A stretch of DNA of 64,000 nucleotides, from assembly GCA_964497125.1 (NCBI GenBank), contig CAZCDU010000005.1:35139-99138 (forward strand). The letters are read 5' to 3'. The stretch's first letter is position 1, and each line of letters opens with the position of its first letter. This DNA comes from an uncultured Victivallales bacterium. GTDB lineage: Bacteria; Verrucomicrobiota; Kiritimatiellia; UBA8416. Under the pieces are notes generated by a model. That model saw nothing but the letters and a program-made list of their open reading frames with translations. It did no database searches and was not told the origin of the DNA. Position numbers and translations under genes: made by a program. Shown in pieces: positions 25,650 to 44,139 of the stretch.

Positions 25650-26906
25650 TCACTCCCTGGCTTCGTCTTGCAGCACGGACCGGGGGATCCAGCCTCGTCG
25701 GTTCTTTGACGCGACGAGAGCCCAACCGTCGTGATGGCGCAGGATGTCCACTTCCGTCGAGTCCGGCATTTCGAACGTTGCCATTGAGCTGGCCGACGGG
25801 GCCATCCGGGCTTGGCTGATGCCGTGGGTGATGCCCTGCTCATAGCGGGCCCTGCCGAGGGCGGTACGAATACGGGAGCCGAGACCCTCCTTCTTAACCT
25901 GGTTTGTGGGTGACTGTGATACGGAGGTATCAGACGGACGGAAGTGCTCAAGCGTGGCGGCTGGCGCATCATGAAAGGTGATTGGGAATGGTCCCCCGAC
26001 GAGGGTCTTATACGAGCCTTCCTCTGTATCGAAGTAGGTAAGCGAAACGGCGGGAATGGCCGCGATGTCTGCAGTTTGTGGGATGATGATCTGTTCGTAT
26101 ATCAACGAGCCGGGGTCCGAATGGACCCGCTTGGGGTCGTAGACCTTCAGTTGGGGGCGCTGCGTCACCTGAGGGACACTGATGTCTTCCATGTAAGCTT
26201 CACCGGAGATGCGAGTTCGCAGATTCACCAGATCGCCCGGTGCAATATCAGAGGGGTCGATCGAGGCCTCGAGGGTTGCGGTGCCGATGACGCCGGAGAA
26301 ATCGGGGGGCGGTTGCGGCGGCGTCTTCACTGTGAGCTCGATGGGTGTCAGAGCCACGGTAAGCGGGAGTTCTTCCCATGCGCTCCCGATGAAGAGCCGG
26401 CGGCGGCGCATGGCGACCAGTTTCAATGTGGGGGCGATGCGAACGCTGCCCGGCGTCATGGCCCGGGCCTTGCAGCGGTAGCTGTGAATCTCAGTGATGC
26501 GATGTCCGTCTCCAATTCGTTTTGTCGGGAGGGTCTCGAATGCGGTGAACATATCCACAAGCCGCTTGTCAGGCAGATCTTCAAGGTCCAGCTTCTGACG
26601 AATCTGGACTCCCTCCGTCTTAATCGTAAGTGTGAATAGGAACGTCTCCCGTTCGTAGAGCTGGTCCTTGCTCACGCTGATCTCGGCTGTAACGGGGGCG
26701 CTTTTGGTTTGGGCGGTGGCGAGTGAAGCAGAAAGCAGAAAGCAGAGAGCGGAAAGGAAAAGAGGGAGAGAGAGTTGAACAGAAGGAAGCAAAGGAAACG
26801 AAGGAAAGAGTTCCCGAAAGCTGCTTTGGACGGGAATCCAAAGCAGATTCCGGAAACGGTTGTCTAAAAGAGACGAAGATTGAGATGGCCTGCGGGAGGC
26901 GGTCAT
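25650..26906 (-). CDS. BatD-like protein with C-terminal SH3b-like domain
   Basis: Start MTASRRP; signal/TM; BatD-type beta-rich body; C-terminal HDGWALVASKNRRGWIPRSVL. Confidence 0.5.
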   Translation of the reverse strand: MTASRRPSQSSSLLDNRFRNLLWIPVQSSFRELFPSFPLLPSVQLSLPLFLSALCFLLSASLATAQTKSAPVTAEISVSKDQLYERETFLFTLTIKTEGVQIRQKLDLEDLPDKRLVDMFTAFETLPTKRIGDGHRITEIHSYRCKARAMTPGSVRIAPTLKLVAMRRRRLFIGSAWEELPLTVALTPIELTVKTPPQPPPDFSGVIGTATLEASIDPSDIAPGDLVNLRTRISGEAYMEDISVPQVTQRPQLKVYDPKRVHSDPGSLIYEQIIIPQTADIAAIPAVSLTYFDTEEGSYKTLVGGPFPITFHDAPAATLEHFRPSDTSVSQSPTNQVKKEGLGSRIRTALGRARYEQGITHGISQARMAPSASSMATFEMPDSTEVDILRHHDGWALVASKNRRGWIPRSVLQDEARE

Positions 26907-29506
26907 GGTTGCACCTCGGTGTGCGTGGGGGGTGGGGCGAGCGAGGCGTCGGGGCGGAGCTCGAGATAGATGGTGGTGATGGCGCTGGACCCGAACAGAA
27001 TAAGGAGTGCAATTCCAACACCAAGTAGGGTTCGGTATGTGTCTCTGAGCCCCACCATGCGAAGCAGGAGGGATACCCACACGAGAAGAACCGCAATGGA
27101 TGCGATGGTTACGCGCGTCTGTCCCGAGAGTCCGTAGTGCCAGAAGAGGAGTGATCGATACCAGGGCAGCTTGGGAATCACAAGTCCGTCGTCAATGCCC
27201 CGCAGGGCTAGTCTCATGTTCCGCTCAAGCTCCCACGTCGTCCCGGAGTAGCGTTCGGATCGCGACAGCGCATTGAGCGCTTCATGGTAGCGACCAGCCA
27301 TGAGGAGTGACGTGCCATAGTTGTAGAGCAGGGGGGCATTGCGGATGCCCTGGTCCAGAATACGTGACAAGGCGGCGGCGGTCTGGTCGAATTCGCCCGG
27401 GGTGCTGGCAGATGAGAGCTGCGACATTGCCAGTTGCGACTCGAACTCAATGGCTTGTGGGTTGGCTTGCGCCATCACCGAAGGAGCAACAAGCACCAGG
27501 AGTGCAGGAAGCCAACGTCGAATTACGGCAAGGGGCGAACGGGACGTGTCCTCCTCTTTGGATTGAAATTCTTCGTCCAGCTCGGAGATTACGTCACAGG
27601 CGTTGGAAGCGTCGTGCTGGATATCGTCCTGCGACTGATCCATGGCTTGGAAGCTTGCGTTGAAGTTTCGAAGAAGCAGGTCTGAAAAACGAGCCGCGAT
27701 CTCTTTCGATACATCGTGCTTTGCCAGAGCCAGGGCCAGGTCTGTCGGTGTGAGTGCCGCTGACAGTAGATCAAGCCGCATCTCAACGTACTGGCGCAGA
27801 GCTGCTGCGATCTCCTGCCGTGCGGCGGCTGCAGAGGTGGTTGCCAGGGCGGGAGCGTGTTGTAGGCGTTCAAGAACGTGGTCTGCGGCCGTGGCGTGAC
27901 GGTGGCGTCGTTCTACAGCGGGCATTAGTCGCCGTCCTGCTCGAAGTGCGGCTCCAATCAGAAACAGAATGGGGCCGAGAATGAGTAATGGCAGATGGAG
28001 TCGAGCCGTAAAGATGGACTCCGGTTCTGCGATGTTCCGAGGCATGGCGATGGGGGCAGGAACCAGCAGGTTGGGGTCGGTGTCCTCGGCCACGATGGTC
28101 ACGCTCTGCTCGACCGTGTCGATCACGATGCTCTGCTCCACTTCGGTCGCCGGGTTGGCGCGGATGGGAATCGGGTCGGTCAGGATGGTGTCGTAGGAAC
28201 GCTTGTTCGTGTTGTAGAAGGAGATAGCCACGGGCGGGAATTCATAGGTCCCGGCGCGTGATGGCCTTACCGTATACCGATAGAGACGACTGTCTTCATG
28301 GGTCTCACTATGGACGGAATCCTCGTAGATGCGGAAATCGGCGCCCAGATCCTCCTGGAGACTGAGACGAGGGGCGAAGAGATTTTCCAGGCGGATGTCG
28401 CCCGAGATGTCGATTTTCAGCGTGAGTGGATCGCCGACCTTGCAGGTCTGGGCGTCGAGGCTCGCCTTCGCGACAAGCCGGCTTCCGATTGCTCCCACGT
28501 AGGACGCGGGACGGCCTTCTTCTGGCGGTGCCACGACTCGTATGGGTTTTGCCTCGACCACGGCGAATATTGGCTCCGTAATCCCTTGTCCAGACGGTGT
28601 TGCTTTGACGAATACCTCGCCCTTGAATGACACAGGGCCAAACGTATACGTCCCCTCGGTCGTTGGTACGTAATCTATGGGGAGCTTGTATTCGAAGTAG
28701 CTGAGGCCATTGTGGTTAACGGTCGTGGGCTTGAAATCGAAGCGGGCGGGTTGCTGCCTGTTGTGGAGGGATTGCATGTTGAAGAAGCCGTCAAACGGGT
28801 TGGACTCCACGGTATAGTCATTCACGGCCAGCCCGGGAGCCCGACGGTTTCGTATCAGCATCCCGTTCAGGAGTTTCTCGACGTTGGGCCCCTCTAGTCC
28901 TTCAAAGGCTTCGTTCTTGAGGTAGGGAATGTGCAGGCGGGGAGGGCGTTCCGATGGTAGGGGACTGGTCTCCACATAGGGCGGCGGAAGTTTCTGGACA
29001 AGAACACGGAGCTGAACGGTAAATGTCTCGTCTACAATGACTTCCGGCTTTGACTGCTCCAGAAAGAGCAGGACACGCTGCTGGGCCTCCACGCCACGGA
29101 CCGCTATGGTCTGGCCCGGTATTGAGGTCTTCCCGCGCGCGTGGTTGACCGTAATGGGACCCAGTTGGATAGAGCCTGTACGTGTGGGTGCAATATCGTA
29201 CTGGAATATGCGCCCGGAGAAGCCGGTGCGGCGACCATTTACTATGGACATGATGCTCTGATCCATATGGCCGCGAGGCGTGATGCTGCAGTCTTTGATG
29301 GCCGACAGATCAGGATTCATGCCTTGCTTGAATCCGTCAACTTTGAGTGTGAGGCGAGTGGTCTCACCGATGAAGATGCGCACCTGGCTAACGGAAGCTT
29401 CTAGTTTGATCTCTTTGGCCCAGGCGATGGAGGAGAGCGTACACAGGTACAGCGCTACGAGGCATGCTCTAGGCAGGGAACGTTGTCTGTGCTTTTGCTG
29501 TTTCAC
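26903..29506 (-). CDS. Large BatD-like protein (867 aa) with central TM segment and C-terminal TPR-like region
   Basis: Signal peptide, repeated BatD-like beta segments, TM LPLLILGPILFLIGAAL, TPR-like C-terminus and two terminal TM helices. Confidence 0.5.
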   Translation of the reverse strand: MKQQKHRQRSLPRACLVALYLCTLSSIAWAKEIKLEASVSQVRIFIGETTRLTLKVDGFKQGMNPDLSAIKDCSITPRGHMDQSIMSIVNGRRTGFSGRIFQYDIAPTRTGSIQLGPITVNHARGKTSIPGQTIAVRGVEAQQRVLLFLEQSKPEVIVDETFTVQLRVLVQKLPPPYVETSPLPSERPPRLHIPYLKNEAFEGLEGPNVEKLLNGMLIRNRRAPGLAVNDYTVESNPFDGFFNMQSLHNRQQPARFDFKPTTVNHNGLSYFEYKLPIDYVPTTEGTYTFGPVSFKGEVFVKATPSGQGITEPIFAVVEAKPIRVVAPPEEGRPASYVGAIGSRLVAKASLDAQTCKVGDPLTLKIDISGDIRLENLFAPRLSLQEDLGADFRIYEDSVHSETHEDSRLYRYTVRPSRAGTYEFPPVAISFYNTNKRSYDTILTDPIPIRANPATEVEQSIVIDTVEQSVTIVAEDTDPNLLVPAPIAMPRNIAEPESIFTARLHLPLLILGPILFLIGAALRAGRRLMPAVERRHRHATAADHVLERLQHAPALATTSAAAARQEIAAALRQYVEMRLDLLSAALTPTDLALALAKHDVSKEIAARFSDLLLRNFNASFQAMDQSQDDIQHDASNACDVISELDEEFQSKEEDTSRSPLAVIRRWLPALLVLVAPSVMAQANPQAIEFESQLAMSQLSSASTPGEFDQTAAALSRILDQGIRNAPLLYNYGTSLLMAGRYHEALNALSRSERYSGTTWELERNMRLALRGIDDGLVIPKLPWYRSLLFWHYGLSGQTRVTIASIAVLLVWVSLLLRMVGLRDTYRTLLGVGIALLILFGSSAITTIYLELRPDASLAPPPTHTEVQP

Positions 29507-29653
29507 TGTGGTTCGCGTCTTCTTCTTGGGGCCCTGTGTGGTGCTACTGTATTCTGGCCCTTTCGGGCCAGCTCGGCTCGGCAGGGACGCCTCGCCCTAC
29601 CAGGAGGAGTTGGTCGTGACGGCCAACGCTACACATGAGATGTCATGTGGAAT

Positions 29654-32368
29654 CTACCAGTCCCGTTCGAATGGCGGAAGCGGAATCAAGTCGTTGCGTC
29701 GCCGCTTCTCATCTTCATGCTCGCGCTCGCGTTCCAGTGCTCGCTCCAGGAGTTTGCGAACATCCTCCTGTTCGCGGGGCTCCTGTTCTTGCGACTCATC
29801 TTGCTGTTGCTCCTGCTGATCCTGTTCCTCTTCGTCTTGTGGCTGGTCTTGTGGCTGCTGATCGTTTTCGCTTTGCTGCTGTTCCTCTTGCTGATCCTGC
29901 TGATCCTGTTGCTGCTGGTTCTGCTGCTTGGGGAGCAAAGTCTGGATCGTGGATAAGCTGTTCTGACTGGCTTTCTGGCTTTCAACTGCGGCTTCAGTAT
30001 CCTTGTTCCTGATCTGCTCAGCCGCCGCTCGTTGATGCTCGATTGCCTTGTCCGCCAGTTCGAGGATCTTGGCGCGTGCCTCCGGAGTGATGCCCTGGGC
30101 TTCCCCGGTGGCGTTGGTCGACGCGGGATCAGGAGGAGGAACCGTTCCTTCTTCAGGGACGGCCTGTTCAAAGCGATGCTTGAACATCTCTGTCAGCATG
30201 GCCGCTTCCTCTTGGATCTCTTCCGGTGCTATGTATTCATCCAGCGGCAGGCTCCCTTCCGTCATTCCAAGCACGTTGGTCTGCTGGCGGATATCTTCAC
30301 GCAGCAACATGTCATACGGTGCAACAGTCTTCCAGAGCTGGTAGGTGCCATGTTCTGCAATTTTGGATGCGCGGAAACCCTCTGGATCTAGATCTCTGAG
30401 CTTTCCGGCTCCGCTATGCATCTCTTCCCGCGTGACGTCCATGAGTTGGTTCAGGGCGGCGAAGTGTTGGGCGTTTGAGGCGCTTCCCTGTTGTGCCATC
30501 GCTTCCGTCAGCTTCGCTTTCAATGGCATCCACAGATCGGCCTGCTCTTGCTGTCGCTCGGCCAGTGCTTCCAGCAGACGAATACGTTCCGGGCTGGTGT
30601 TGGTGATAGCGGTCGTGATCTGTTTGGCGAGCTCTCGTTGTTCGGACAGCATCTGGTCGGCCAGTTGGGGGGCTGGTGTCTTTTCGTATTGCTTGGCGAG
30701 TGCGAGCGCTTTCGCGTTCTGCTCTTCTGCTGCCAGGCGAGACATGCTCACCGCCACGTTGTCCCGTGCGATGGTTTGGTCGGGATCACTCCGCCACGCT
30801 TCTTTGAATGCCTCACCGGCTTCTCTCAGCAGCCTTACCCGTTTCTCCGCCTGCTCGGGATCGTTCGCGTCCAAGCCCTCTGCGGACCGGTAGAGCGTAC
30901 TCCCAAGGGCCGTGTTTTCATCCCGTTCGCCACGGCGTCCCTGGAGTGACAGCTCGCGAAGTATGTGCGAGGAGGCCTCGTAGTCCCCATCCTTGGCTAG
31001 AGCAATGGCAGCGTTGTGGCGGAAATCACGGCTGGCTCGGCGGGATACTCCTTGCGCGGCCTGCAGGTAGGCCTCCGCGGCTTCGCGGTACTTGCCTCGC
31101 TTGAAGAGTCGCTGGGCGTACCGTGCCCCGTTTCGGCCTGCCGGCGTGGCGTGTTCTGATTTGCTTTCGACAACCTGGGGCGTCGCATTGGTGGTTTCGA
31201 CGGCATTGGTGGTGCCGGGGGCTGCGTTGAGATACTGCCCATAGAAACCAAGAATCAGGGCTATGCCAATCTGTTTGAGCTCACGTTTAGGTGGTGTCAG
31301 GTCTTTGATCGTCGGGGTTGTTGCGGCCGCTGATGCTTCGGTCGGCTGAGTCATGCGACCGCTTCCGAGGCGGCCACGGCTGAGATAGCAGGTGCCGAGA
31401 AGCAGGCAGAGGCCGGGGAACAGGAACCACTGGTAGCGTTCGATGGTTCGCCGCTCTTGTGTCTCCGCCAGCTCGCGGGCATTGATGTTGCGTAGGTGAT
31501 CGCGATAGATGGTCCCAAGCGTTGTGCTCGTCATGCTGGCCGTTTCTACCGGAATGTAGGAGCCCCCGGAGGCCTTGGCGATCTTGTAAAGCGTGTCGTG
31601 ATCGAGTTTCGTGACGATATCCGTCTTCTTGTGCTGTAAGTAGCGGGTACGACCTTCCTTGTCCGGTATCCGAGAGCCCTGGCGGCTTCCCAGCCCAACG
31701 GTATAGATTGGGATTCGTTTCTCGCCCGCAGATTCCGCCATCTCGATGGATTTTCCGGTCAGGTCCTCGCCGTCGGAGATCAAGACGATCGCCTTGTGGG
31801 AGGACTCGCTCTCGTCAAAGGCGTCCAGCGCCTTCGTAATCGCTCCACCAATATCGGTCTCGCCGCGTGGGGCTGAAGCCGGACTCAATCCGTCGAGCGC
31901 CTGCCGCAGAAAGGCATAGTCTGTCGTGAGGGGACACACGAGCGAAGCCTTGGATCGAAAACCGATCAGTGCTGCACGATCGCCCTGAAGCTCCTTGATC
32001 AGATCGATCAGGTCGATTTTGGCACGGCGAAGACGAGAGGGATGCACGTCATTGGCTAGCATGGATCGCGAGACATCAACGGCAATCACAAGGTCTCGTG
32101 CCTGCTGGTAGACCGTTTCTTCACGTTCTCCCCACTTCGGGCGCGCTGCGGCAACGAGCAGCAGCAGCAACCCGACGGTTGCGAGCGCAATTTGCCAGAG
32201 CAAGCGGTTGATACGTCGTCCCGGGAATATCCTGCGCTGTAGTTCCGGCGCTACGAAACCAGTCATGGCACGGGTGGTCCGCTTGTAGAGGGCCCACCAC
32301 CATCCCCCGATCGCGGGTACGATCCAGAGGAAGTAGAGCACCCATGCATTTTCAAAATGTAGCGTCAT
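29654..32368 (-). CDS. BatB-like VWA protein fused to BatC-like TPR region with long Q/E-rich low-complexity C-terminus
   Basis: Two N-terminal TMs, VWA (DLVIAVDVSRSM...LISDGED), TPR-like segment (YREAAEAYLQAAQG), C-terminal QQNQQQQDQQDQQEEQQQ... tail. Confidence 0.65.
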   Translation of the reverse strand: MTLHFENAWVLYFLWIVPAIGGWWWALYKRTTRAMTGFVAPELQRRIFPGRRINRLLWQIALATVGLLLLLVAAARPKWGEREETVYQQARDLVIAVDVSRSMLANDVHPSRLRRAKIDLIDLIKELQGDRAALIGFRSKASLVCPLTTDYAFLRQALDGLSPASAPRGETDIGGAITKALDAFDESESSHKAIVLISDGEDLTGKSIEMAESAGEKRIPIYTVGLGSRQGSRIPDKEGRTRYLQHKKTDIVTKLDHDTLYKIAKASGGSYIPVETASMTSTTLGTIYRDHLRNINARELAETQERRTIERYQWFLFPGLCLLLGTCYLSRGRLGSGRMTQPTEASAAATTPTIKDLTPPKRELKQIGIALILGFYGQYLNAAPGTTNAVETTNATPQVVESKSEHATPAGRNGARYAQRLFKRGKYREAAEAYLQAAQGVSRRASRDFRHNAAIALAKDGDYEASSHILRELSLQGRRGERDENTALGSTLYRSAEGLDANDPEQAEKRVRLLREAGEAFKEAWRSDPDQTIARDNVAVSMSRLAAEEQNAKALALAKQYEKTPAPQLADQMLSEQRELAKQITTAITNTSPERIRLLEALAERQQEQADLWMPLKAKLTEAMAQQGSASNAQHFAALNQLMDVTREEMHSGAGKLRDLDPEGFRASKIAEHGTYQLWKTVAPYDMLLREDIRQQTNVLGMTEGSLPLDEYIAPEEIQEEAAMLTEMFKHRFEQAVPEEGTVPPPDPASTNATGEAQGITPEARAKILELADKAIEHQRAAAEQIRNKDTEAAVESQKASQNSLSTIQTLLPKQQNQQQQDQQDQQEEQQQSENDQQPQDQPQDEEEQDQQEQQQDESQEQEPREQEDVRKLLERALEREREHEDEKRRRNDLIPLPPFERDW

Positions 32369-32374
32369 CTCTGT

Positions 32375-33421
32375 CTATACCAATCGTCTTGCGATTGCCA
32401 TGTTGAGGGCTAGTCCCAGCAAGACCAGTGCGATGCCGGGAGTCAGGAAATGGGGGAAGAGTTCACGGTACTGGCGGTAGACGTCCTGCTCGACACGGGT
32501 CGTTTCCAGTTCGTCGATCTTCTCCAGCGCCCGGCCGAGGCCCTTTTCGTCCTTAACATTGAAGTATTCGCCGTTTGTCTCCGATGCGATGCGGCGAAGC
32601 AGGACTTCGTCGAGCGTGACGTGTGCCCGTGAGATCACCTTGCGTCCAAAGCGGTCTGTCGCCCAGAACGGTGCGCGCCCGGAGCTGCCTACGCCGATGG
32701 TGTAGACTTTGACGCCAAGCTTTCGTGCCACCTCGATTGCGCTATCCGGCTCAATGATTCCCGTGTTGGATTCTCCGTCACTGAGAAGAACGATGACTTT
32801 GGATACGGGTTCGGCTCTTTCAATCCGGGCGCAAGCCGTCGCGAGAGCATCGCCCACGGCCGTGAGTAGTTCATCCTCGTTCATAACGTTGCCGTTCTTA
32901 TCAAAGACGGCCTTGGGTGTAGCGACGCCTTCGAGAACGTGACCGAGGGCCTCATGGTCGGATGTCATGGGAGCCAGGGTTGAGACGTATCCGCCGAACA
33001 CGATGAGACCAATGAGGTCGTCTTCGCGTTCCTCCACGAAAGCTGCAAAGGCCTCTTTGACGGCGTCCAGACGTGTCTTATATTTCATGCCGGTTGGCGC
33101 TCGCGTCGACATGTCCAGCGCCTCCATAGAGCCAGAGATATCAACTACCATCTGGATGGCGATGACATCAGCGGTCTTGCGGCTCTTGGACAGGACCGTT
33201 TGAGGACGAGCCATAGCCAATAACAACAGACCCAGTCCGGTCAGAATGACGATCGGCAGCAGGCGGGACACAACGGTACGCCACGAGCGGCCCTGCCGCG
33301 GCACGCGCTTCATGGGCGCAAACCGAATGCCCTGCTGCACGCGTCTCGCATAGATACACCACCCCGCCAACGCCATGGGCGCCAGGAGCAGAAAACTAGA
33401 TGGATTTCCAAATTGAAACAT
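32375..33421 (-). CDS. BatA-like VWA domain membrane protein
   Basis: N-terminal TMs, VWA MIDAS VVDISGSM...LLSDGESN, C-terminal TM. Confidence 0.75.
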   Translation of the reverse strand: MFQFGNPSSFLLLAPMALAGWCIYARRVQQGIRFAPMKRVPRQGRSWRTVVSRLLPIVILTGLGLLLLAMARPQTVLSKSRKTADVIAIQMVVDISGSMEALDMSTRAPTGMKYKTRLDAVKEAFAAFVEEREDDLIGLIVFGGYVSTLAPMTSDHEALGHVLEGVATPKAVFDKNGNVMNEDELLTAVGDALATACARIERAEPVSKVIVLLSDGESNTGIIEPDSAIEVARKLGVKVYTIGVGSSGRAPFWATDRFGRKVISRAHVTLDEVLLRRIASETNGEYFNVKDEKGLGRALEKIDELETTRVEQDVYRQYRELFPHFLTPGIALVLLGLALNMAIARRLV

Positions 33422-33428
33422 AGATTCA

Positions 33429-33508
33429 GGTTTCAGTCGTTACAATCGTTTCAGTCGTTACACGTTTCAGTCGTTACACGTTGCACGTTGCAGTCGTTAC
33501 ACGTTGTG
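33429..33508. repeat. Tandem ~16-bp repeats GTTTCAGTCGTTACAC / GTTGCAGTCGTTACAC (~5 units)
   Basis: Same family as 12634-12672. Confidence 0.6.
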
Positions 33509-33551
33509 GATGTTACAGTGGCCTCTGTTGAAGAGACGAATAGACTCACGA

Positions 33552-35436: not shown

Positions 35437-35544
35437 CTTGAGGTGTCAGTGTTCAGTGTTCAGGTTTCAGGGCGAGATGTTCCGACGCTGCGCATCGGTG
35501 CCACTTGCGTGGCGTGTTGGCCGAGATGGCCAACGCTACAACTT

Positions 35545-36531
35545 CTATGGGACGGGGAGTTCACTCAGTAGATGTGTGATGACGTCTTCGCTGGTGACGT
35601 CTTCGGCTTCGGCCTCGTAGGTCAGGATTACACGGTGACGCAGGACATCGTGGGCAATCTCCTTCACATCCTGAGGCGTGGCATAGGCACGTCCATTGAG
35701 CATCGCGTTGGCACGCGACGCCAGGTTGAGGTAGAGGCTGGCGCGCGGGGAGGCTCCGTATTCAATCTGGTGGTCGATATCGACCTTGTACTCAGACGGT
35801 TTGCGGGTCGCGAATACGATGTCGAGGATGTAGTCGGCGACTTTCTCGTCGCAGTAAACCTGATCCAGAATGCTGCGCATCGTGGCGATATCGTCAGACG
35901 ACATGACGGGCTCAAGCTTGATGTTCTGATCTCGCGTGAAGCGGTTCATAATGCGCCGTTCGTCATCCTTTGAGGGATAATCTACTTTGCACTTCAGCAT
36001 GAAACGGTCAACCTGCGCCTCGGGCAGGGGGTAGGTGCCCTCCTGTTCGATCGGGTTCTGCGTGGCCATGACCATGAAGGGCGAGGGCAGCGGGTAGGTC
36101 GAGTCACCGATGGTAACCTGGTGTTCCTGCATGGACTCAAGCAAGGCCGATTGCACTTTGGCCGGGGCGCGGTTGATTTCGTCTGCCAGCAGGATGTTGG
36201 TGAACACCGGCCCTTTGCGGGGGGCGAATGTGCCCTCTTTCGGATTGTAGATCATGGTCCCCACGACATCGGCCGGCAGCAAGTCAGGTGTGAATGAAAT
36301 CCGCTGGAATTGAACGCCGATGGAGTCGGCCAACGACTTCACGGCCGTGGTTTTGGCCAGCCCGGGGACGCCCTCCAGCAGAATGTGTCCACCGGTAATC
36401 ATGGCAATCAACATACGATCAATGAGCTTCTCCTGGCCAACGATGACCTTTGTCACCTCCTGGCGGAGCTTCTCAATCGTCTGCGACTGCTCTTTGAGCA
36501 TGTCTGTTGTCTTGGCGATATCCGTACTCAT
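35545..36531 (-). CDS. MoxR-family AAA+ ATPase
   Basis: Walker A GVPGLAKT, LLADEINRAPAKVQSALLESMQE, ATQNP. Confidence 0.9.
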   Translation of the reverse strand: MSTDIAKTTDMLKEQSQTIEKLRQEVTKVIVGQEKLIDRMLIAMITGGHILLEGVPGLAKTTAVKSLADSIGVQFQRISFTPDLLPADVVGTMIYNPKEGTFAPRKGPVFTNILLADEINRAPAKVQSALLESMQEHQVTIGDSTYPLPSPFMVMATQNPIEQEGTYPLPEAQVDRFMLKCKVDYPSKDDERRIMNRFTRDQNIKLEPVMSSDDIATMRSILDQVYCDEKVADYILDIVFATRKPSEYKVDIDHQIEYGASPRASLYLNLASRANAMLNGRAYATPQDVKEIAHDVLRHRVILTYEAEAEDVTSEDVITHLLSELPVP

Positions 36532-37886
36532 TCTGTAATAGTCTCCTTCGCGGCTTCCGGCTCCGCGGTGGTTTCGGTTGCTGTGCTTGTCACGGCTTCT
36601 GTTTCCCCGGTGTCGGGTGTTGCCGGTGTCTCTTCCTCTGTTTCTTCTTGAGGCGCTGTTTCGATATGACTCTCCGCAGCGGGGGAGGACGCTGATTCCG
36701 CTGCCTCCGCCTCAGCGTCTGGTTCAGAGGAGCCAGTTGTTTCGGGCGAAGCTACTTCTGCCTCCGGTTCCTCTTCTTGCTCCTCTTCCGGTTCCTTCAG
36801 CAGCTCTGAGCGGGGTTTGTAGAATGCCCCAGCCTTGTAGCCTTGAATACGGAAGGTCCATTTGCCGAGGCGGCTGTTTAGTTTGGCCACTTCCGTTTTG
36901 GTCTGTTCGGCTTTGCCTGCATCCGGCGTGTCTTCTTCTGTTGACTCATCGCCTTCCTCTTCTTCATCGGCCACTTCCGGTTCAACGTATTGAACGGAGA
37001 TCCTCGCGTAGCGGTCATCTGTATCGCCGATGGGGTCACTCACGGTGACATCGAACTGTTTGCCGTCCTTGGTCCACGCGTGGAAGGCGGTTGGCTTCTC
37101 AAAGCCAAGGTCGGCATCGCTCTGCTCGGGATCCGCAATATCCTTGAGATTGAGATAGCTCAGCGCGTTCTCGATCGTGTAGGACTTGCTGGAATCGTAC
37201 TCTTCTCCGTCGGCCAGGTTGCTCATGACAAGCTTGTCATCATCATCGCGCGCCACCTCGTAAGCATCGCCGTCGCCTTGCTCAACGCGAACGCGGGCAA
37301 TCTCGGAGCCGGGGATGTTGAGAATCTCGGTGTTTAGCCAGCTCTCGATTTCTGTGGTTGCCTCACGGATGGGATCTGCGACGAGGTACACGGTGGCACC
37401 GTTGTCGACGGAGACATAGCGCCCATCCGGAAAGCCGCCGTAGCCCATCGGTCCGGGTGTGGTGCTTTGGCGTTCGCGCTGCTCGCCGAGCATGATGGCC
37501 GATATCTCATTGCCACCGGCGTTGAGTTTGATCGTCGTTGCCGCATTGGCATCAATGCCCAGTTCGCGCTTCTGATCCTCGTTGAGGTCAGTAACCTGGC
37601 CAATCTCCAGGCCCTCAAGCTTGAGGAGCAGATCCCGTATCTTCGCGAAGTCCGCTGCATAGCCGAAACGGGATGGCATTACCCATCCGGATTCTCCCCG
37701 GGTTACGCGGCAGGTTTCTTCTCCGGTCGCAATGATGATCTCATCAATGGCATTGAGGTCGATGCTCTCGAGCACGCTGGTGCCGATAATCGAAGGCTCC
37801 GCTGTGTCATCGCGTGACGTCAGCCAGGCGACGCCGCCAAGAATTGCACAGGCAGTCAGCAGAAGTATCAGTTGTTTTGCTTTCAT
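36528..37886 (-). CDS. DUF4340-like periplasmic protein with acidic E-rich C-terminal tail
   Basis: Signal peptide; typical position downstream of GldG-like gene; 4-bp overlap with moxR. Confidence 0.5.
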   Translation of the reverse strand: MKAKQLILLLTACAILGGVAWLTSRDDTAEPSIIGTSVLESIDLNAIDEIIIATGEETCRVTRGESGWVMPSRFGYAADFAKIRDLLLKLEGLEIGQVTDLNEDQKRELGIDANAATTIKLNAGGNEISAIMLGEQRERQSTTPGPMGYGGFPDGRYVSVDNGATVYLVADPIREATTEIESWLNTEILNIPGSEIARVRVEQGDGDAYEVARDDDDKLVMSNLADGEEYDSSKSYTIENALSYLNLKDIADPEQSDADLGFEKPTAFHAWTKDGKQFDVTVSDPIGDTDDRYARISVQYVEPEVADEEEEGDESTEEDTPDAGKAEQTKTEVAKLNSRLGKWTFRIQGYKAGAFYKPRSELLKEPEEEQEEEPEAEVASPETTGSSEPDAEAEAAESASSPAAESHIETAPQEETEEETPATPDTGETEAVTSTATETTAEPEAAKETITE

Positions 37887-37921
37887 AGGTACATTCTCTC
37901 CACGTGTAATGCGTTAGTTGT

Positions 37922-39814
37922 TCAGCCGTTTCTCTTGCGGCGAACGCCGTAAACAATTCCTGCAAGGGCAACCAGAAGTGGCATCAGGGCAATGTTGATG
38001 ACTTTGACCTGGATGCCCAATCTCTCGATATCCCGGCGTAAGCTCTTGCGGACCTCCTTGAGCTCCTGCTTGATCTCGAATTCCCGCTTGCGGAAGCCCT
38101 CGATAGCTTTGCGCTGTTGATCGCTCAGGATGAACTGCTGTCTGTCATCCTTCTGCGCCTGGAGTTCGTTGAGTTGGCGCTGGGCCTCCTGGAGACTCTT
38201 CTCCAGTGACGTTTCACGTTCCCGCCACTGTGCCACGGCATCGGCTTCGAGCTTGTCTACCTTCGTGAAGGGGCGGTGGAAGGTGCCCCTTGATCGGATG
38301 CTGATCAGATCGCTGCTACCCGCCATGGTTTCGACCATGTTGGCGAAGAACGTCAGGTTGTCGTTGAGGGGGCGATGGGCGGTCTGGCCGAAGAAGGAGA
38401 TCTCTTCAACACAAAGCGGATCGAAGAGCATGTCAACGTCCGCCACGACAATGACAACGCTCTTGCCTTCCGTGAGTGCCTCAGGCTCAGCGATGTTCTC
38501 TTCCGTGCCCTCTTCATCCGACGCGGCCGGCTTGCCGCCGGGAAACGCGGTCTTGAAGGTGCCGGCGAGCTTCAATGCGACGTGCTGCCGGGTGGGGGAC
38601 GCCGTGAACTGGTTGCGAATGGCATCGCTGCCGTACCGGGCGCTCATGGCATTCACGAAGCCGCACCGTTCAGAGGCTGTCAACAGGGGGGTTACCTCAA
38701 TATCGTCAGAGGTGTTGTCCGTCAGGGCGCCGCCAAAGGCAGCACGCAGAACATTGAGCTTGGTTGTAATGATGTCGTCGCCGTCAATGTTCGACTTGTT
38801 GAATGAGATGACGGTTGGATTGCGGTCGACGCCGCCCTGGGGCGAGCGCATGGGAGTGGCGCCATCGTAGTCGGCGAGGACCTTCGATGCGTCGTAGCCA
38901 ACGCCCCACGCCGAAAGCAGCCTGGGTGCGTCGGAGGCCGTCTGTGGCATGCCATAGGGGGAGGGCGCCGCACTCTGATCTGCGAAACTCATGGGGTCGA
39001 CAAACATGACCACGTGCCCACCGCCCAGCACGAACTGGTCGATGGCGAACTGAGCGTCATCGGAAAGCTCCTTGGGATGTACAACCAGCAGGGCCTGTAT
39101 GTTGGATGGAATGCCATCTTCGGCGGACTTGATTTCCTGCAGATCGTAATCGCCACGCAGCTCCTGTACCGCGATCCAGGCCGGCTGCGGTGGTGGCTGT
39201 GGCTGTCCGGGCATCGCAAACTGCTGCCCTGGCGTTCCCATGATGGGGAGACTGCTGAGTACACCAACAGCCGGTTTCTGCGGGTGCGTGACGCGATGGA
39301 TCATGCGCGTGACATGGAACTCAAGCAGTTGCTGCATACGCGGGTCGAGCGTGGGCAGAACAGCCTCGGTCTTCCCGGCTGTAGCCACAAGACCGAAGTA
39401 GATTGGCGGGCCAAACATATCCAGCGATTGGCCCGCGATGCCGTATTTCTGGGCCCACTCCTCGGCGTCTGAGTCCGGCTTGGGGTCCAGTTTCTGGATC
39501 TTGACCTTGCCCTTGGATGCCAACCGGTATTCCTCGAGGAGATCCTCGACCTGGCTAGCGTAGTTCTTGAGGCCGGCCGGAATCTTCGGATTGCTGCTGT
39601 TAAAGAACAGTTTCAGCGTTACCGGTTGCTCAAGCGTCTTGAGCGCGTTGGCCGTACCTTCTGATAGTGAGTAGAGCTTCTCGTCGGTGAGATCCACCCG
39701 CAGGCGCATGTTTCCAACGATGATATTGACTGCGATCAGAATGCCGAGCAAGGCCACCAGGCCAAGCAGGCTGCTTCCGATCTTCCACACGGGGAGTGAT
39801 TTGGTTGCTTTCAT
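37922..39814 (-). CDS. GldG-like auxiliary component of ABC-type transport system
   Basis: N- and C-terminal TM anchors with large periplasmic domain; adjacent ABC-2 permease and ATPase. Confidence 0.65.
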   Translation of the reverse strand: MKATKSLPVWKIGSSLLGLVALLGILIAVNIIVGNMRLRVDLTDEKLYSLSEGTANALKTLEQPVTLKLFFNSSNPKIPAGLKNYASQVEDLLEEYRLASKGKVKIQKLDPKPDSDAEEWAQKYGIAGQSLDMFGPPIYFGLVATAGKTEAVLPTLDPRMQQLLEFHVTRMIHRVTHPQKPAVGVLSSLPIMGTPGQQFAMPGQPQPPPQPAWIAVQELRGDYDLQEIKSAEDGIPSNIQALLVVHPKELSDDAQFAIDQFVLGGGHVVMFVDPMSFADQSAAPSPYGMPQTASDAPRLLSAWGVGYDASKVLADYDGATPMRSPQGGVDRNPTVISFNKSNIDGDDIITTKLNVLRAAFGGALTDNTSDDIEVTPLLTASERCGFVNAMSARYGSDAIRNQFTASPTRQHVALKLAGTFKTAFPGGKPAASDEEGTEENIAEPEALTEGKSVVIVVADVDMLFDPLCVEEISFFGQTAHRPLNDNLTFFANMVETMAGSSDLISIRSRGTFHRPFTKVDKLEADAVAQWRERETSLEKSLQEAQRQLNELQAQKDDRQQFILSDQQRKAIEGFRKREFEIKQELKEVRKSLRRDIERLGIQVKVINIALMPLLVALAGIVYGVRRKRNG

Positions 39815-39865
39815 GGTTGCTTATCCAATCTCCTGTCTATTCGAGTCGTTAGGCAATGTTGAGCG

Positions 39866-40615
39866 TTATGCTGATTTGCGGTTGTCGAGTACCAGGTGCG
39901 TGCCGACGATCATGAAGACCATGACACTCAGGTAGTAGACAACATCCTTCAGATCCACGACGCCACGCTTGATGGCTTCGTAGTGAGGCGTGAAGCTGAG
40001 CGAAGCGATCGTGTTGACGAGCCAGCTGGGTGCCCAGCGGGAGAAGAATCCCGTAATCGGCTCCCATCCTGCAAGGAGCAGGACGAAACAGAAGGTCAGG
40101 GCGAGTACGAAACTGATGACCTGGTTGCGTGTCATCGATGACGTCAGCATGCCAACGGAAACGTACGCACCGGCCAGCAGTATCGATCCGACGTAGCCAC
40201 AGAACACCACGCCCAGATCGGGGTCACCCAGGTGGCAGGTTGTAACCACCATTGTTGGAATCGTGAGTGCAATGGCCATGGCGATGAATAGCCAGGCGGC
40301 GAGGAACTTGCCAACGATGGCCTGTGTCATGGTGACAGGCATGGTCAGCAGGAGTTCAATCGTGCCGCCGCGACGTTCTTCGGCCCAGAGTCCCATGGTG
40401 GCCGCGGGGACCAGCAGGAGGTAGACCCAGGGATGCCAGAAGAAGAACGGCTCCAGGTCTGCCACGCGACGTTCGTAGAAATGATGTACCGAGAAGGTCA
40501 GGAATCCGGTGAGAACCAGAAACACGACCATGAATACGTACGCGACGGGGGATTCGAAGTAGGACTTCAGTTCCCTGCGGAAGATGGTGGAAATATTACG
40601 TGCGTTCGATGACAT
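39866..40615 (-). CDS. ABC-2 type transporter permease (GldF-like)
   Basis: Six TM helices, ABC2_membrane pattern. Confidence 0.75.
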   Translation of the reverse strand: MSSNARNISTIFRRELKSYFESPVAYVFMVVFLVLTGFLTFSVHHFYERRVADLEPFFFWHPWVYLLLVPAATMGLWAEERRGGTIELLLTMPVTMTQAIVGKFLAAWLFIAMAIALTIPTMVVTTCHLGDPDLGVVFCGYVGSILLAGAYVSVGMLTSSMTRNQVISFVLALTFCFVLLLAGWEPITGFFSRWAPSWLVNTIASLSFTPHYEAIKRGVVDLKDVVYYLSVMVFMIVGTHLVLDNRKSA

Positions 40616-41359
40616 TTATGCATCCTCCTCAAGTGTGAGTTTGCGGAATACATCATCCAGGCGCCCTGTGCTGCTCATGGCTTTGAGCTCGTCGGGGGTA
40701 CCGTTGGCCGCGACTTGGCCGTTGGCGATGATGATGGCCCGGTTGCAGACTGCATCCACCTCTTCGAGGATGTGGGTGGAGACAATGATGACCTTTTCGG
40801 AGGCCATTTCTTTGATCATTTCACGGACAACGAACTTCTGGTTGGGGTCGAGCCCGTCCGTCGGTTCGTCCATGATCAGGACCCGGGGATCATGAAGAAT
40901 GGCCTGGGCAAAGCAGGTTCGCTGTCGGTAGCCCTTGGAAAGGGTATGGACCGTCTGGTCGCGCACCTTGGTCAGATGACACTTGGTGATGGTTTGATCG
41001 ACACGATCGACAAGTTCGGAGCCTGAGAAGCCACGAATCGATCCCGTGAACTTCAAGAAATTGGCTACGGTCATGGAGCCGTAGGCGGGCGCGTTCTCTG
41101 GAAGATAGCCGATCTGTTCCTTAACGCCAATCGGGTCCGTCGCCACATCGCAACCACCGACGAGCGCCGTTCCCGATGTGGGAGGCAGAAAGCCCGTGAT
41201 CATCCGCATGGTTGTCGTTTTTCCCGCGCCGTTCGGACCGAGGAATCCCAGGACTTCACCTTTGGATACTTCAAATGTCACGCCTCGCACGGCTTCAATG
41301 TGTCCGAAGTTCTTCTTCAGGTCCCGGACCTCAACCTTGCTGTTGCCGCCTTCAGTCAT
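40616..41359 (-). CDS. ABC transporter ATP-binding protein (GldA-like)
   Basis: Walker A GPNGAGKTT, signature LSKGYRQR, Walker B LIMDEP; start MTEGG with GGAGGTG RBS. Confidence 0.85.
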   Translation of the reverse strand: MTEGGNSKVEVRDLKKNFGHIEAVRGVTFEVSKGEVLGFLGPNGAGKTTTMRMITGFLPPTSGTALVGGCDVATDPIGVKEQIGYLPENAPAYGSMTVANFLKFTGSIRGFSGSELVDRVDQTITKCHLTKVRDQTVHTLSKGYRQRTCFAQAILHDPRVLIMDEPTDGLDPNQKFVVREMIKEMASEKVIIVSTHILEEVDAVCNRAIIIANGQVAANGTPDELKAMSSTGRLDDVFRKLTLEEDA

Positions 41360-41420
41360 TGGCGCCACCTCCGAGTTGCTATGTTAGTGTGCATAGTCAT
41401 ACGTCTCCTCTTTTCATCTG

Positions 41421-42773
41421 CTACAAGGGCAGATCGTGTTCCTTGATTTTGCGTTGGATGGTTCTGCGTGAAAGGCCGAGTTCGTCAGCTGTAAGCGTTC
41501 GGTTACCCGCATGGCGTGCCAGTGTCTGGCGCAGGATCTCCTTCTCGATGTCCTGCAGCGTCATGCCGCTGGGGGCCGTGAAGGGGACATCCGGGGCCGG
41601 GGCATCCCGGGTGAGTGTAAGGTCGCGAGCCGATAGTGTGGGAGATGTCGACATCACGACGGCGGATTCAATGACATTGCGAAGTTGGCGGATATTTCCA
41701 GGCCAGCTTTGGGAGACGAGGGCACCGTAGAAGTCTGGCGCTACTTCGCGAATCGCACGGTCATGTTCGGCGCAGGCAGCTGCGATAAAGCGGTCTGCAA
41801 GTGGACGTATATCACCACGTCGTTCGCGAAGAGGGGGCACGGCAATGTCGACTACTTTGAGGCGATAGAGCAGGTCTTCACGGAAATCACCATTGGCCAC
41901 CAGTTCTTCCAGGCTGCGGTTGGATGCGGAAACGACGCGAACATCGACACTGAATGAGCCCTGTCCTCCGATGCGCGTTACCTTGCGTTCTTCCAATACA
42001 CGCAGGAGCTTAATCTGTACGTCTGCGGGCGCGTCGCCGACTTCGTCGAGAAAGAGCGTCCCTCCATTGGCGCGCTCGAATGCGCCCTGGTGCTGTCGGA
42101 TCGCCCCTGTGAAGGAGCCTTTCTCGTGGCCAAAGAGTTCGGACGCCAGCAGTGATTCGATGAAGGCTCCACAGTTGACGGCGACAAAGGGGCCATTGGC
42201 GCGTGGCCCGTCATAGTGGAGGGCCCGCGCCACCAGCTCCTTGCCGGTTCCGCTCTCGCCCTGGATGAGTACGGTTGCCGACGTGGCTGCCAAGGTGCGA
42301 ACCTGTTCGAGTAGGGCGACACTGACGGGGTCCTCGGCGGTCATGGCGCCGGAGCCGAACTGGCTGCGTGCGTTGGTGCGGAAACGATCCACCTGGCAAC
42401 GGAGGCGTGATGCCTCAACGGCTCGTCCGAGTTTGGTCTGGAGGTCGTCGAGGTCCAGCGGTTTCGTGATGTAGTCATAAGCTCCGGACTTCAATGCCTT
42501 CACGCTAGAATCAACGGAACCGTAGGCCGTCATGATCATGACGGGGACTTCGGGGTTCAGCTTCAGAATTGTCGTCAGCACCTCGATACCATCGATATCC
42601 GGCAGAACGAGATCAGAGAGCACAACGTCAAACGAGCCGCTCTTGAATGCTGCGATACCTTCCTCACCGGTCGCGGCCGCAACGGCGAGCATATCTCCAT
42701 CCTCGACGGCCTCGACCACGGACGCGCGTCCGTCGGGGTCATCTTCGATTATCAGTATGCGCGGTTCTTCCAT
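41421..42773 (-). CDS. Sigma-54-dependent response regulator (NtrC family: REC + AAA+ + HTH)
   Basis: REC DxxxD..K; Walker A GESGTGKE; sigma-54 contact motif GSFTGA; C-terminal Fis-type HTH. Confidence 0.85.
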   Translation of the reverse strand: MEEPRILIIEDDPDGRASVVEAVEDGDMLAVAAATGEEGIAAFKSGSFDVVLSDLVLPDIDGIEVLTTILKLNPEVPVMIMTAYGSVDSSVKALKSGAYDYITKPLDLDDLQTKLGRAVEASRLRCQVDRFRTNARSQFGSGAMTAEDPVSVALLEQVRTLAATSATVLIQGESGTGKELVARALHYDGPRANGPFVAVNCGAFIESLLASELFGHEKGSFTGAIRQHQGAFERANGGTLFLDEVGDAPADVQIKLLRVLEERKVTRIGGQGSFSVDVRVVSASNRSLEELVANGDFREDLLYRLKVVDIAVPPLRERRGDIRPLADRFIAAACAEHDRAIREVAPDFYGALVSQSWPGNIRQLRNVIESAVVMSTSPTLSARDLTLTRDAPAPDVPFTAPSGMTLQDIEKEILRQTLARHAGNRTLTADELGLSRRTIQRKIKEHDLPL

Positions 42774-42786
42774 ATTGGGGTAATCT

Positions 42787-44139
42787 CTATGCAGTTTCCG
42801 TGCCAGCTGAAAGAGGGAGCGTGATTCGAATGCAGGTGCCTTGTCCGCTCGGAGGACTGGCAACTTCGATGGTTCCGCCTGACCTCTCAATGGCGGCCTT
42901 GGCCAGGAAAAGCCCAAGGCCCGTACCTTCCGGCCGCTCCGTAATGAACATATCGAAGATCTGTTTGCGTTTGTGTTCCGGAACGCCGGGGCCACAGTCT
43001 ATGATATCAACGATCGCTGTTTCCCCGCTTTTCCGGATGTTAACGGTGACCGTCTTCCCCGCCGGCGAGAACTCCTCGGCATTCGTCAGGACGTTGACCA
43101 GCGCACGGCGCAGTGAGCCCTCGTAGGCTGAGACGGCAACGCCTTCGGGAGGGGCATTCACCTCGCTGGAGACCTCTGCCTTCTCGAATCGGGGCAGCAG
43201 CATCTCGAGAGAGTCACGGATGCAGGCGACCAGGTCGACGCGGGTGCGGTCATCGCGATCCGGACGGGATACATAGAGGAATTCCTGGAACACCTTGTCC
43301 ATGCGGTCCAGTGTGCTGCGCACGCGCGTGGCCAGCTTGCCCATGCGTTCCGGGCGTGCCCCGTCGCTACGCTCGGTTTCGCGATGCAGCATCTGAACGT
43401 CGAGTCGCATTGACGACATCGGATTGCGGAAGTCGTGCACGATTCCATTGGCCAGCATTCCGGAGAAGGCGAGATGCTCTTCATCGCGCCGCAGTGCCTC
43501 CCGTTTGGCTTCGCGTCGCATCATCCAGACGACGACAAGGGCGCATATGGCGAACGAGATGAGCACCGTGATGAGGGTCAGTCTGAACATAGACGCAATG
43601 GCCGCTTCACTGGCTTCTTCTTCGCGGTTAACGGTATCCTTGCGTAGCGCTACGTGGACTCGGGTATCGACGCCATCGGGGCTGTCCACGGTTGTTCCAA
43701 AGACCACAACAGGTATGGACTCTCTGCCAACTTCAAGCAGCTCACGGCGCATTTCCACCGGCGCGGATGCCGGGGGGACCGGAGTGGGGGGCTCAGAGCC
43801 ATCCAGAAGGCGGGTCTGCTCATGAAATACAACGACCCCGTCGCGCACGACAGAAACATACTGTAGGCCATCCTCGAGTGTATAGAGGTTGCGGACAAGG
43901 CGGGAAAACTCGCTCCAATCACTGGCGTTCGCATTGGTTGATGTCACCGATGGCTGTGACGAGAGGCGGGCTACCATCGCCTGGCCCTGGCTGATGACCG
44001 TTTCGGCGGCAGCGGTATGTGCGGAGCGTCTGTGCATACGGCGGAGCACAACGAGCGTACTCCCAGCGAGGCCCGCGATTAAGAGCACGAGCAACGCCGT
44101 GATGAGCGTCAGAGGCAAGTTGGTTCGCTTATGCCGCAT
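42787..44139 (-). CDS. Sensor histidine kinase (HisKA + HATPase_c) with N-terminal periplasmic/TM region
   Basis: H-box HDFRNPMSSM, N/G boxes (NVLTNAEEFS, DCGPGVP, GTGLGL). Confidence 0.8.
   Translation of the reverse strand: MRHKRTNLPLTLITALLVLLIAGLAGSTLVVLRRMHRRSAHTAAAETVISQGQAMVARLSSQPSVTSTNANASDWSEFSRLVRNLYTLEDGLQYVSVVRDGVVVFHEQTRLLDGSEPPTPVPPASAPVEMRRELLEVGRESIPVVVFGTTVDSPDGVDTRVHVALRKDTVNREEEASEAAIASMFRLTLITVLISFAICALVVVWMMRREAKREALRRDEEHLAFSGMLANGIVHDFRNPMSSMRLDVQMLHRETERSDGARPERMGKLATRVRSTLDRMDKVFQEFLYVSRPDRDDRTRVDLVACIRDSLEMLLPRFEKAEVSSEVNAPPEGVAVSAYEGSLRRALVNVLTNAEEFSPAGKTVTVNIRKSGETAIVDIIDCGPGVPEHKRKQIFDMFITERPEGTGLGLFLAKAAIERSGGTIEVASPPSGQGTCIRITLPLSAGTETA

Follow-up and report, generated by a model that had tools for sequence, protein, structure and literature searches.

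Does a long run of genes that joins an ATP-binding cassette (ABC) transporter of the GldA/F/G type to a Bat-type module make up one system, or do several independent systems lie there side by side? The question is raised by a stretch of 64,000 nucleotides (nt) from an uncultured Victivallales bacterium (contig CAZCDU010000005.1, positions 35,139 to 99,138 of the forward strand), hereafter the window, in which thirteen consecutive genes occupy positions 25650–44139 of the minus strand. An earlier note on this DNA had proposed that they form a single envelope-assembly or stress system. We conclude, with a probability of roughly 0.55, that the region is one conserved, clade-specific, sigma-54-controlled envelope-stress unit. 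The linkage of the genes is conserved, as described below; that they serve one system is read from gene order and promoters, and the regulatory part of this reading is drawn from sequence motifs.

Gene order in the window and in its relatives

The map of open reading frames, inspection of start codons and Pfam scans bear out the thirteen minus-strand genes and the domains that had been assigned to them. A sensor kinase gene and a regulator gene come first and are followed by a core of eleven genes in fixed order, encoding an ABC ATPase, an ABC-2 permease, a GldG-like protein, a DUF4340 protein, MoxR, a DUF58 protein, a DUF4381-like protein (here called X9), BatA, BatB, BatD and a BatD-like protein with an SH3 domain. 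Strand switches close the run at both ends, one convergent (23765/24187) and one divergent (44139/44439), the latter opening onto hsp20 and clpB. The genes had been described as separated by short gaps or overlaps. This holds for most junctions, which measure 13 nt (kinase–regulator), 61 nt (regulator–ABC ATPase), 0 nt (ATPase–permease), 51 nt (permease–GldG), 35 nt (GldG–DUF4340), −4 nt (DUF4340–moxR), 4 nt (DUF58–X9), 6 nt (batA–batB) and −4 nt (batD–SH3 gene), but three gaps are longer, at 108 nt (moxR–DUF58), 130 nt (X9–batA) and 147 nt (batB–batD). The 4-bp overlap of the DUF4340 gene with moxR, singled out in the earlier note, is real and recurs in three relatives (L003, L060 and L140).

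The relatives are uncultured Victivallales, Lentisphaerae and Kiritimatiellae of the PVC group (Planctomycetes, Verrucomicrobia and Chlamydiae), all metagenome-assembled genomes (MAGs). They were gathered from a DUF4340 protein search, which gave 37, and from a scan of one genome per GTDB species; their loci were mapped by tblastn with the window proteins and are labelled L001, L003, L140 and so on. The order of the eleven genes from the ABC ATPase to the SH3 gene is kept in 24 of the 46 species loci, and the linked loci are only 27–39% identical to the window in DUF4340 and 32–39% in BatD. A metagenome scan gave the same picture from the side of MoxR. Where this protein was at least 71% identical, the DUF4340, GldG and ABC genes lay directly upstream in every locus with sequence on that side (8/8); where it was less than 70% identical they did so in none of 52, and those of the distant loci with enough downstream sequence carried ordinary MoxR-DUF58-(DUF4381)-BatA-BatB(-BatD) operons. 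Two further members of the clade, found by a MoxR protein search, have the same gene order. Thus the joining of a Bat-type module to a GldA/F/G-like ABC system with DUF4340 is borne out and is kept in deeply diverged relatives, and the neighbourhood conservation on which the proposal of a single system depended is present. A cultured carrier of the linked type was also sought, and all entries with a named source among the best 120 MoxR relatives were MAGs.

From this pattern (24/46, 8/8 and 0/52) it follows that the linkage is old, does not extend beyond one clade and has disappeared from gut lineages. A neighbour-joining tree of the GldG-like proteins, in which three labels were corrected by eye against the tblastn mapping, places the linked loci in two deep clades and the unlinked loci in outgroups (Verrucomicrobiae and Acidoferrum), one large clade from gut and rumen and two singletons. 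One old fusion followed by several later losses is the simplest history. The flanks vary while the order of the core stays the same: upstream lie the kinase and regulator genes, clpB, hsp20 or a gene for a DegP-type protease. Since the order is kept despite these changed flanks, selection has apparently acted on an operon-like unit, and mere recent common descent does not account for it.

The first half of the core encodes a transporter with the architecture of an ATPase, an ABC-2 permease and an ABC_transp_aux accessory protein, as found by Pfam. The ATPase (40616–41359; this and all core genes on the minus strand) is GldA-like with an ABC_tran domain, and the permease (39866–40615) is GldF-like with six transmembrane segments by hydropathy. 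In the GldG-like accessory protein (37922–39814), DUF7088 and a periplasmic ABC_transp_aux region lie between membrane anchors at the N- and C-termini. The DUF4340 protein (36528–37886) has an N-terminal anchor, beta-rich periplasmic modules and a tail of about 80 residues (36528–36770) that is acidic, rich in E, T and A, predicted to be disordered and variable in length among relatives. One DUF4340 protein of Verrucomicrobium spinosum has been reported to have an essential domain (PMC12283558).

The second half opens with MoxR (35545–36531), an AAA+ ATPase with AAA_3 (PF07726, 218 bits) and AAA_lid_2 domains that is 72–95% identical across the linked clade. The adjoining gene (34546–35436) encodes a VWA-like DUF58 protein (PF01882, 264 bits) with a DISGS metal-ion-dependent adhesion site (MIDAS) motif and no transmembrane segment. 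X9 (33552–34541) is a membrane protein with a signal peptide, one transmembrane segment and a weak match to DUF4381 (E = 0.003), and is found at the same position in all linked loci with 38–71% identity. BatA (32375–33421) and BatB (29654–32368) are both membrane proteins with VWA/VWA_2 matches, transmembrane segments and MIDAS motifs (DISGS and DVSRS, respectively). The NCBIfam models for BatA and BatB are their best matches but fall below the cut-offs (for BatA the best is VWA_BatA_Lepto), and the match to the BatA N-terminal domain reaches 20.1 of the 25.9 bits required. BatB carries a 570-residue helical tail rich in Q, E and D, whose end (29654–29950) is of low complexity and varies in length among relatives. 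BatD (26903–29506) has BatD domains (PF13584, 82 bits in two stretches), transmembrane segments and a C-terminal helical region. The last gene (25650–26906), which overlaps batD by 4 bp and whose position is kept in relatives, encodes a protein with sub-threshold SH3_3 (21.9 bits, cut-off 27) and BatD-like (23.7 bits, cut-off 24.1) matches and no tetratricopeptide repeat (TPR); it resembles BatE by its SH3 domain alone. A classic Bat set had been recognised here. MoxR, DUF58, BatA, BatB and BatD are indeed present, but BatC is not a separate gene: no stand-alone TPR protein was found in the cluster, the TPR signals being sub-threshold and lying within the tails of BatB and BatD. That list of Bat genes was also incomplete, as it omitted the DUF4381-like gene between DUF58 and BatA and the BatD-like character of the SH3 protein at the end.

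The run probably extends by a further member. A secreted protein with ankyrin (Ank) and FGE-sulfatase domains is encoded at 24187–25578 on the same strand, 71 nt after the SH3 gene, bringing the minus-strand run to fourteen genes; L140 has a gene for a protein of 50% identity in the same place (from 20753 to the end of the locus at 20987). Beyond it, the convergent gap contains 4.1 copies of a 56-bp hairpin unit (23932–24159; fold z-score −2.95), likely a terminator region. The units are 95% identical and each contains a perfect hairpin, GGCTCCCCGG-AATA-CCGGGGAAGCC. On the far side of this array is a UDP-glucose pyrophosphorylase-like gene (22350–23765), with a sigma-54-like motif, TGGCGCTGGATTTGCT, on the plus strand 30 nt 5′ of it (22305–22320, one mismatch).

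Promoter motifs, junctions and the kinase/activator pair

A sequence was counted as a sigma-54 motif if it had the GG and GC at −24 and −12 and agreed with TGGCAC-N5-TTGCT in 9 or more of the 11 specified letters; by these criteria the background is 0.017 per 250 nt. The ABC ATPase gene is preceded by such a motif in 14 of 31 unique linked loci, as against none of the 20 unlinked ones (Fisher p = 2.5e-4, without correction for phylogeny). In the scan of the relatives there was no motif 5′ of moxR (0/109), the DUF4340 gene (0/62) or batA (0/49), and none 5′ of X9 or batD. The Bat genes, if they respond to sigma-54, would therefore use the promoter 5′ of the ABC genes. This placing of the motif, 5′ of the ABC genes but not of moxR, is the strongest argument for one transcription unit. 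Seven relatives that have the kinase and regulator genes (L022, L023, L028, L037, L039, L048 and L049) carry a strong sigma-54 promoter in the regulator–ABC gap, which puts the ABC genes in the sigma-54 regulon of the clade.

The kinase (42787–44139, minus strand) has two transmembrane segments around a periplasmic loop of about 155 residues, followed by HisKA and HATPase_c domains; in NCBIfam it comes closest to AtoS and ZraS, without reaching the cut-off of either. The regulator (41421–42773, minus strand) is an NtrC-type sigma-54 activator with Response_reg, Sigma54_activat and HTH_8 domains, and has a GSFTGA (GAFTGA-type) sigma-54 contact loop at residue 219. In the window this pair heads the cluster, as had been stated, but it is facultative, being found in about half of the linked loci and always with a divergent hsp20. 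In the linked loci that lack the pair, the divergent neighbour is clpB, or else hsp20 sits just 5′ of the ABC gene on the same strand (L010, L012, L061 and L068).

Three sigma-54 motifs surround the divergent border of the window. One, TGGTACTTTTCCTGCT (44167–44182, minus strand), lies 27 nt 5′ of the kinase gene, where a motif is found in 6 of 14 loci and weaker variants in the others. Another, TGGCACGGATCGTGCA (44409–44424, plus strand), is 14 nt 5′ of the hsp20 ATG, so that the mRNA would be nearly leaderless; 7 of 10 loci have a motif here with at least 9/11 matches and the remaining loci have weaker variants. The third, TGGTACGCGGAATGCT (45176–45191, plus strand), lies 39 nt 5′ of clpB and has counterparts in 10 of 12 loci. 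A fourth, sigma-54-like motif, TGGCACGGAAACTGCA (42790–42805, minus strand), falls inside the kinase gene at its 3′ terminus and leaves 16 nt to the ATG of the regulator. It is conserved in L003 and L007, with a similar motif in L140, but this may simply mirror conservation of the coding sequence. Control by a sigma-54 enhancer-binding protein, as claimed for the whole cluster, is thus favoured by the motifs at the kinase gene of the window and at the ABC gene of the linked relatives, and is qualified by the regulator–ABC gap of the window, where the motif is missing, and by the facultative nature of the pair.

Between the divergent promoters lie putative activator sites, a perfect palindrome, TGCGACA-N3-TGTCGCA (44232–44248), and a degenerate copy (44255–44271). 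The palindrome is unique in the window to the hsp20/kinase gap; it was looked for before clpB and before the ABC gene in the window and not found at either. Related inverted repeats are at the hsp20/kinase position in L003, L007, L022, L023, L048 and L049, and the palindrome is likely to be a binding site of the activator. Above all, the kinase/activator pair has the look of a regulator of the Zra type that acts on hsp20 and on its own genes.

The hsp20 gene (44439–45050, plus strand; Pfam HSP20, 29 bits) encodes an alpha-crystallin domain preceded by an N-terminal transmembrane segment. The hydrophobic stretch at residues 6–24 (ERVLLxAILGMQLVIA) is kept in all relatives, including L003, L007, L022, L023, L048, L049, L057 and L140, and the protein is probably a membrane-anchored small heat-shock protein whose alpha-crystallin domain, by the positive-inside rule, would face the periplasm. 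A small heat-shock protein that is membrane-anchored and possibly faces the periplasm is unusual. The disaggregase gene clpB (45231–47825, plus strand) follows, and also neighbours the cluster in L001–L007, L013, L014, L017, L020, L021 and L141. Its sigma-54 promoter is kept (L003–L021 and L141) even where there is no kinase/activator pair nearby, with a different, GTCATAATGAC-like palindrome upstream, which suggests a second activator and a sigma-54 heat-shock regulon in the clade. Envelope proteases also occur beside ABC-GldG-DUF4340 or Bat genes, of the DegP/HtrA type in L010 (449–1918) and L138 (6344–7807) and of the M48/HtpX type in L137 (7327–8244). These neighbours in other lineages, which are anecdotal, also point to a stress role.

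Conserved elements of another kind were seen 5′ of the ABC gene in some relatives. Six loci (L028, L029, L031, L039, L060 and L062) share TTTTTGTCAYCC, followed by a GC-rich hairpin, in the stretch that separates the sigma-54 promoter from the ABC start codon, and three (L016, L017 and L020) have a sigma-70-like ABC promoter with a conserved leader hairpin of another sequence (TTTCTCTC...GAGAGAA). Both kinds are possible leader RNA elements.

None of the intergenic gaps within the cluster of the window contains a terminator-like site on the minus strand, and sigma-70-like matches did not exceed the expectation from shuffled sequence. The 61-nt regulator–ABC gap has no stable fold (z = +1.1), and an Rfam search of positions 23000–48500 at E ≤ 0.1 gave no match. 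Internal terminators or promoters that would split the cluster into independent units, which had been named as a finding that would refute the proposal, are therefore not recognisable between the genes of the window.

The three long gaps contain repeats. A 24-nt GC-rich hairpin, GTAGCGTTGGCCRTCWCGRCCAAC, which resembles repetitive extragenic palindromes, occurs on the minus strand at 35516–35539 (moxR–DUF58) and at 29609–29632 (batB–batD) and has no other copies in the window. Short tandem repeats, with units of 7–23 nt around GTTTCAGTCGTTACAC, fill 33430–33506 (5′ of batA, where the run consists of units of 16–23 nt) and 35446–35472 (5′ of DUF58) and are missing from the closest relative, in which the counterparts of the three long gaps measure 2–31 nt apart from one insertion. 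This insertion, in the closest species-level relative (L003, L004 and L011), is a signal peptidase I (Peptidase_S26) gene between moxR and DUF58 (12264–12959). From their sequence, the long gaps of the window appear to be lineage-specific repeat insertions, unlike conserved regulatory regions.

One unit or several

If the region is one sigma-54-controlled unit, it might work as follows. The periplasmic loop of the kinase would sense an envelope or proteotoxic signal and the kinase would phosphorylate the activator, which would then fire the divergent sigma-54 promoters. One of these would yield hsp20 and the other a long transcript running from the kinase and regulator genes on into the ABC-to-Bat genes, a read-through that we infer from the lack of any visible terminator or other promoter. 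In the window, expression of the ABC and Bat genes would thus come from the kinase promoter, perhaps also from the motif at the end of the kinase gene, and in relatives without the pair it would be driven by a sigma-54 or sigma-70 promoter of the ABC gene itself. The products would include a cytoplasmic AAA+/VWA pair, MoxR and DUF58, working with the membrane-anchored, MIDAS-bearing BatA and BatB, the mostly periplasmic BatD and BatD/SH3 proteins and the bitopic DUF4381-like protein, and an ABC-2 exporter with its periplasmic accessories, the GldG-like and DUF4340 proteins. This chaperone-like MoxR/VWA membrane assembly would be made together with the GldG-type exporter and probably acts on or with it, the whole being a membrane-centred system that would maintain or remodel the cell envelope under heat or other stress. 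A joint biochemical function of the ABC and Bat products is something we infer. The stronger proposal, that both sets of proteins are subunits of one envelope-spanning machine switched on by a sigma-54 envelope/heat-stress circuit together with Hsp20 and ClpB, is tentative, and we consider it possible but with the odds against it.

Published work on related genes fits a stress role. Heat and oxidants induce moxR and the bat genes of Riemerella, and these genes influence survival (PMC11834572). The bat genes of Leptospira are immediately followed by htpG, whose product was the sole protein changed in a bat deletion, which had no oxidative phenotype (PMC3557215). In archaea, genes for GldG-like DUF4350 proteins co-occur with moxR and vWA genes (PMC5898192).

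Several observations weigh against a single unit. In 22 of the 46 species loci, ABC-GldG-DUF4340 occurs alone, and since classic MoxR-Bat operons also occur alone, neither module needs the other. The linkage is restricted to one PVC clade. The one case with the opposite order, L081 (of the Desulfobacterota type), has a DegP gene (166–1638), a full Bat operon and then ABC-GldG downstream; we considered it as an independent juxtaposition of the modules and rejected it, as three relatives of its GldG have no Bat genes nearby, so that the arrangement is not kept in its own lineage. The DUF4340–moxR junction varies among relatives from −4 to 261 nt (median 68 nt) and strong hairpins follow the DUF4340 gene in some of them (L031 and L047), so that the two halves could be expressed separately or with attenuation. 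About half of the linked loci have no kinase/activator pair, and the 61-nt regulator–ABC gap of the window has only a decayed version of the sigma-54 motif. Searches of the PDB sequences with the GldG-like protein, a DUF4340 profile and BatD found no match. Finally, the bat genes of Leptospira have independent promoters (PMC3557215).

Some of these points are what one would expect if the pair were a Zra-like envelope-stress module serving hsp20 and itself only, with the ABC and Bat genes of the window transcribed from another promoter that is not recognised here. The palindromic site is confined to the hsp20/kinase gap, the pair is never seen without a divergent hsp20, about half of the linked loci have no such pair, and the regulator–ABC gap of the window lacks the motif. 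Against this, the gap is short, with neither a terminator nor a stable fold, and the seven pair-bearing relatives named above have a strong sigma-54 promoter precisely there. We give this explanation a real chance, though one well short of even. It is rather unlikely, to our mind, that kinase/regulator, ABC-GldG-DUF4340 and MoxR-Bat are three independent units, held together by inherited synteny without functional coupling. Each module does occur alone in many genomes, the loosest junctions fall at the module borders (the regulator–ABC junction has a median of 100 nt across relatives, next to the variable DUF4340–moxR junction), and both the hairpins after DUF4340 and the internal promoters of the Leptospira bat genes (PMC3557215) are in keeping with such a division. 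Yet order and orientation persist although BatD has diverged to 32–39% identity and the flanks have changed, the 4-bp overlap at the module border recurs in the window and three relatives, no promoter motif precedes moxR in any of 109 loci, and wherever a sigma-54 promoter precedes the ABC gene, Bat genes follow.

Two further explanations concern the function of the cluster and not its unity. A dedicated system for aerotolerance or oxidative stress would agree with the sensitivity of Bat mutants of Bacteroides, Porphyromonas and Riemerella to oxygen or oxidants (reviewed in PMC11834572) and with the loss of the linkage in gut and rumen lineages. We think it unlikely, given that a Leptospira mutant without any bat gene has no oxidative phenotype (PMC3557215), that Pfam finds no redox enzyme gene in the cluster and that the neighbours are of the heat-shock type and not oxidant defences. 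A part of the gliding-motility or type IX secretion (T9SS) apparatus, with GldA/F/G and a GldK-like FGE protein, would be suggested by the best NCBIfam matches, which are GldA (TIGR03522), GldF (TIGR03518) and GldG (TIGR03521) for the transporter and the T9SS lipoprotein GldK/PorK for the fourteenth gene. The scores are far under the equivalog cut-offs (277/403, 200/289, 102/390 and 70/350 bits, respectively), the GldK/PorK match arises from the generic FGE-sulfatase domain that the proteins have in common and is limited to it, and no other gld, spr or por gene is present in the approximately 21–48.5 kb of the window examined. On the NCBIfam cut-offs we rejected this explanation, which is very improbable. 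A sigma-54-controlled envelope-stress unit thus remains the reading that we prefer.

Relation to known systems

All of the parts belong to known families, and there is nothing unusual in a Bat operon, a GldAFG-like transporter or an NtrC-type system taken singly. In the literature searched we found no description of a stable fusion of ABC-GldG-DUF4340 with MoxR-Bat across a deep PVC clade, of its placing in a sigma-54 regulon with clpB, of a membrane-anchored hsp20, or of a Zra-like sigma-54 heat-shock circuit in Lentisphaerota/Kiritimatiellia. Bat/MoxR-VWA operons and GldG-type ABC/DUF4340 systems occur widely, and no molecular function is known for either. Their linkage in a compact unit that shares sigma-54 promoters with hsp20 and clpB suggests that they share a role in envelope or proteostasis stress and, if they do form a single machine, this would be the first functional context for two orphan systems. 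The chief value of the locus lies in a hypothesis about these two long-unexplained systems that can be tested through co-transcription, co-purification and shared stress phenotypes.

The nearest published parallel to the joining of the two halves is the archaeal and bacterial DUF4350-MoxR-vWA neighbourhood, for which a complex acting in secretion or membrane remodelling has been predicted (Makarova et al. 2015, PMC5898192). It too has a gene for a GldG-type extracytoplasmic protein beside COG0714 MoxR and vWA genes, but the GldG-like family and the lineages are different and there is no ABC transporter, DUF4340 or BatD. The Bat operons of B. fragilis, Riemerella, Francisella, Leptospira and Borrelia, which published work connects with heat and oxidative stress and with chaperone genes nearby (PMC11834572, PMC3557215, PMC5700661), are alike in having MoxR first, then DUF58 and a small DUF4381-type protein, two MIDAS-bearing membrane VWA proteins, BatD and a last protein with SH3. 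Here, however, the unit does not begin with the module, which follows ABC-GldG-DUF4340 (overlapping it in the window); BatC is not found as a separate TPR protein, BatB and BatD have long extra tails, the last protein combines SH3 with a BatD-like region in place of TPR, and sigma-54 promoters lie upstream.

The transporter half has the same composition as GldA/GldF/GldG of Flavobacterium johnsoniae and the GldG-like ABC_transp_aux systems, that is, an ATPase, an ABC-2 permease and a bitopic GldG-type accessory protein, and in the latter systems DUF4340 is the usual fourth gene, as here. It differs from GldA/GldF/GldG in scoring below the equivalog cut-offs, in lacking any gliding or T9SS context, in being joined to MoxR-Bat and in belonging to a sigma-54 regulon.

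The layout of the divergent border is that of zraP-zraSR in E. coli, where genes for a kinase and an NtrC-type activator are divergent from a small chaperone gene, with two sigma-54 promoters flanking the activator sites. The pair has ZraS and ZraR among its best NCBIfam matches, but the proteins are not members of these families (120 against 479 bits for ZraS and 378 against 760 bits for ZraR), the chaperone is a membrane-anchored Hsp20 and not ZraP, and at least 11 structural genes follow the regulator. Taken more broadly, the hallmarks of NtrC-type sigma-54 two-component systems, a regulator with REC, AAA+ and HTH_8 domains, a HisKA kinase, −24/−12 promoter motifs and an inverted repeat upstream, are all present here.

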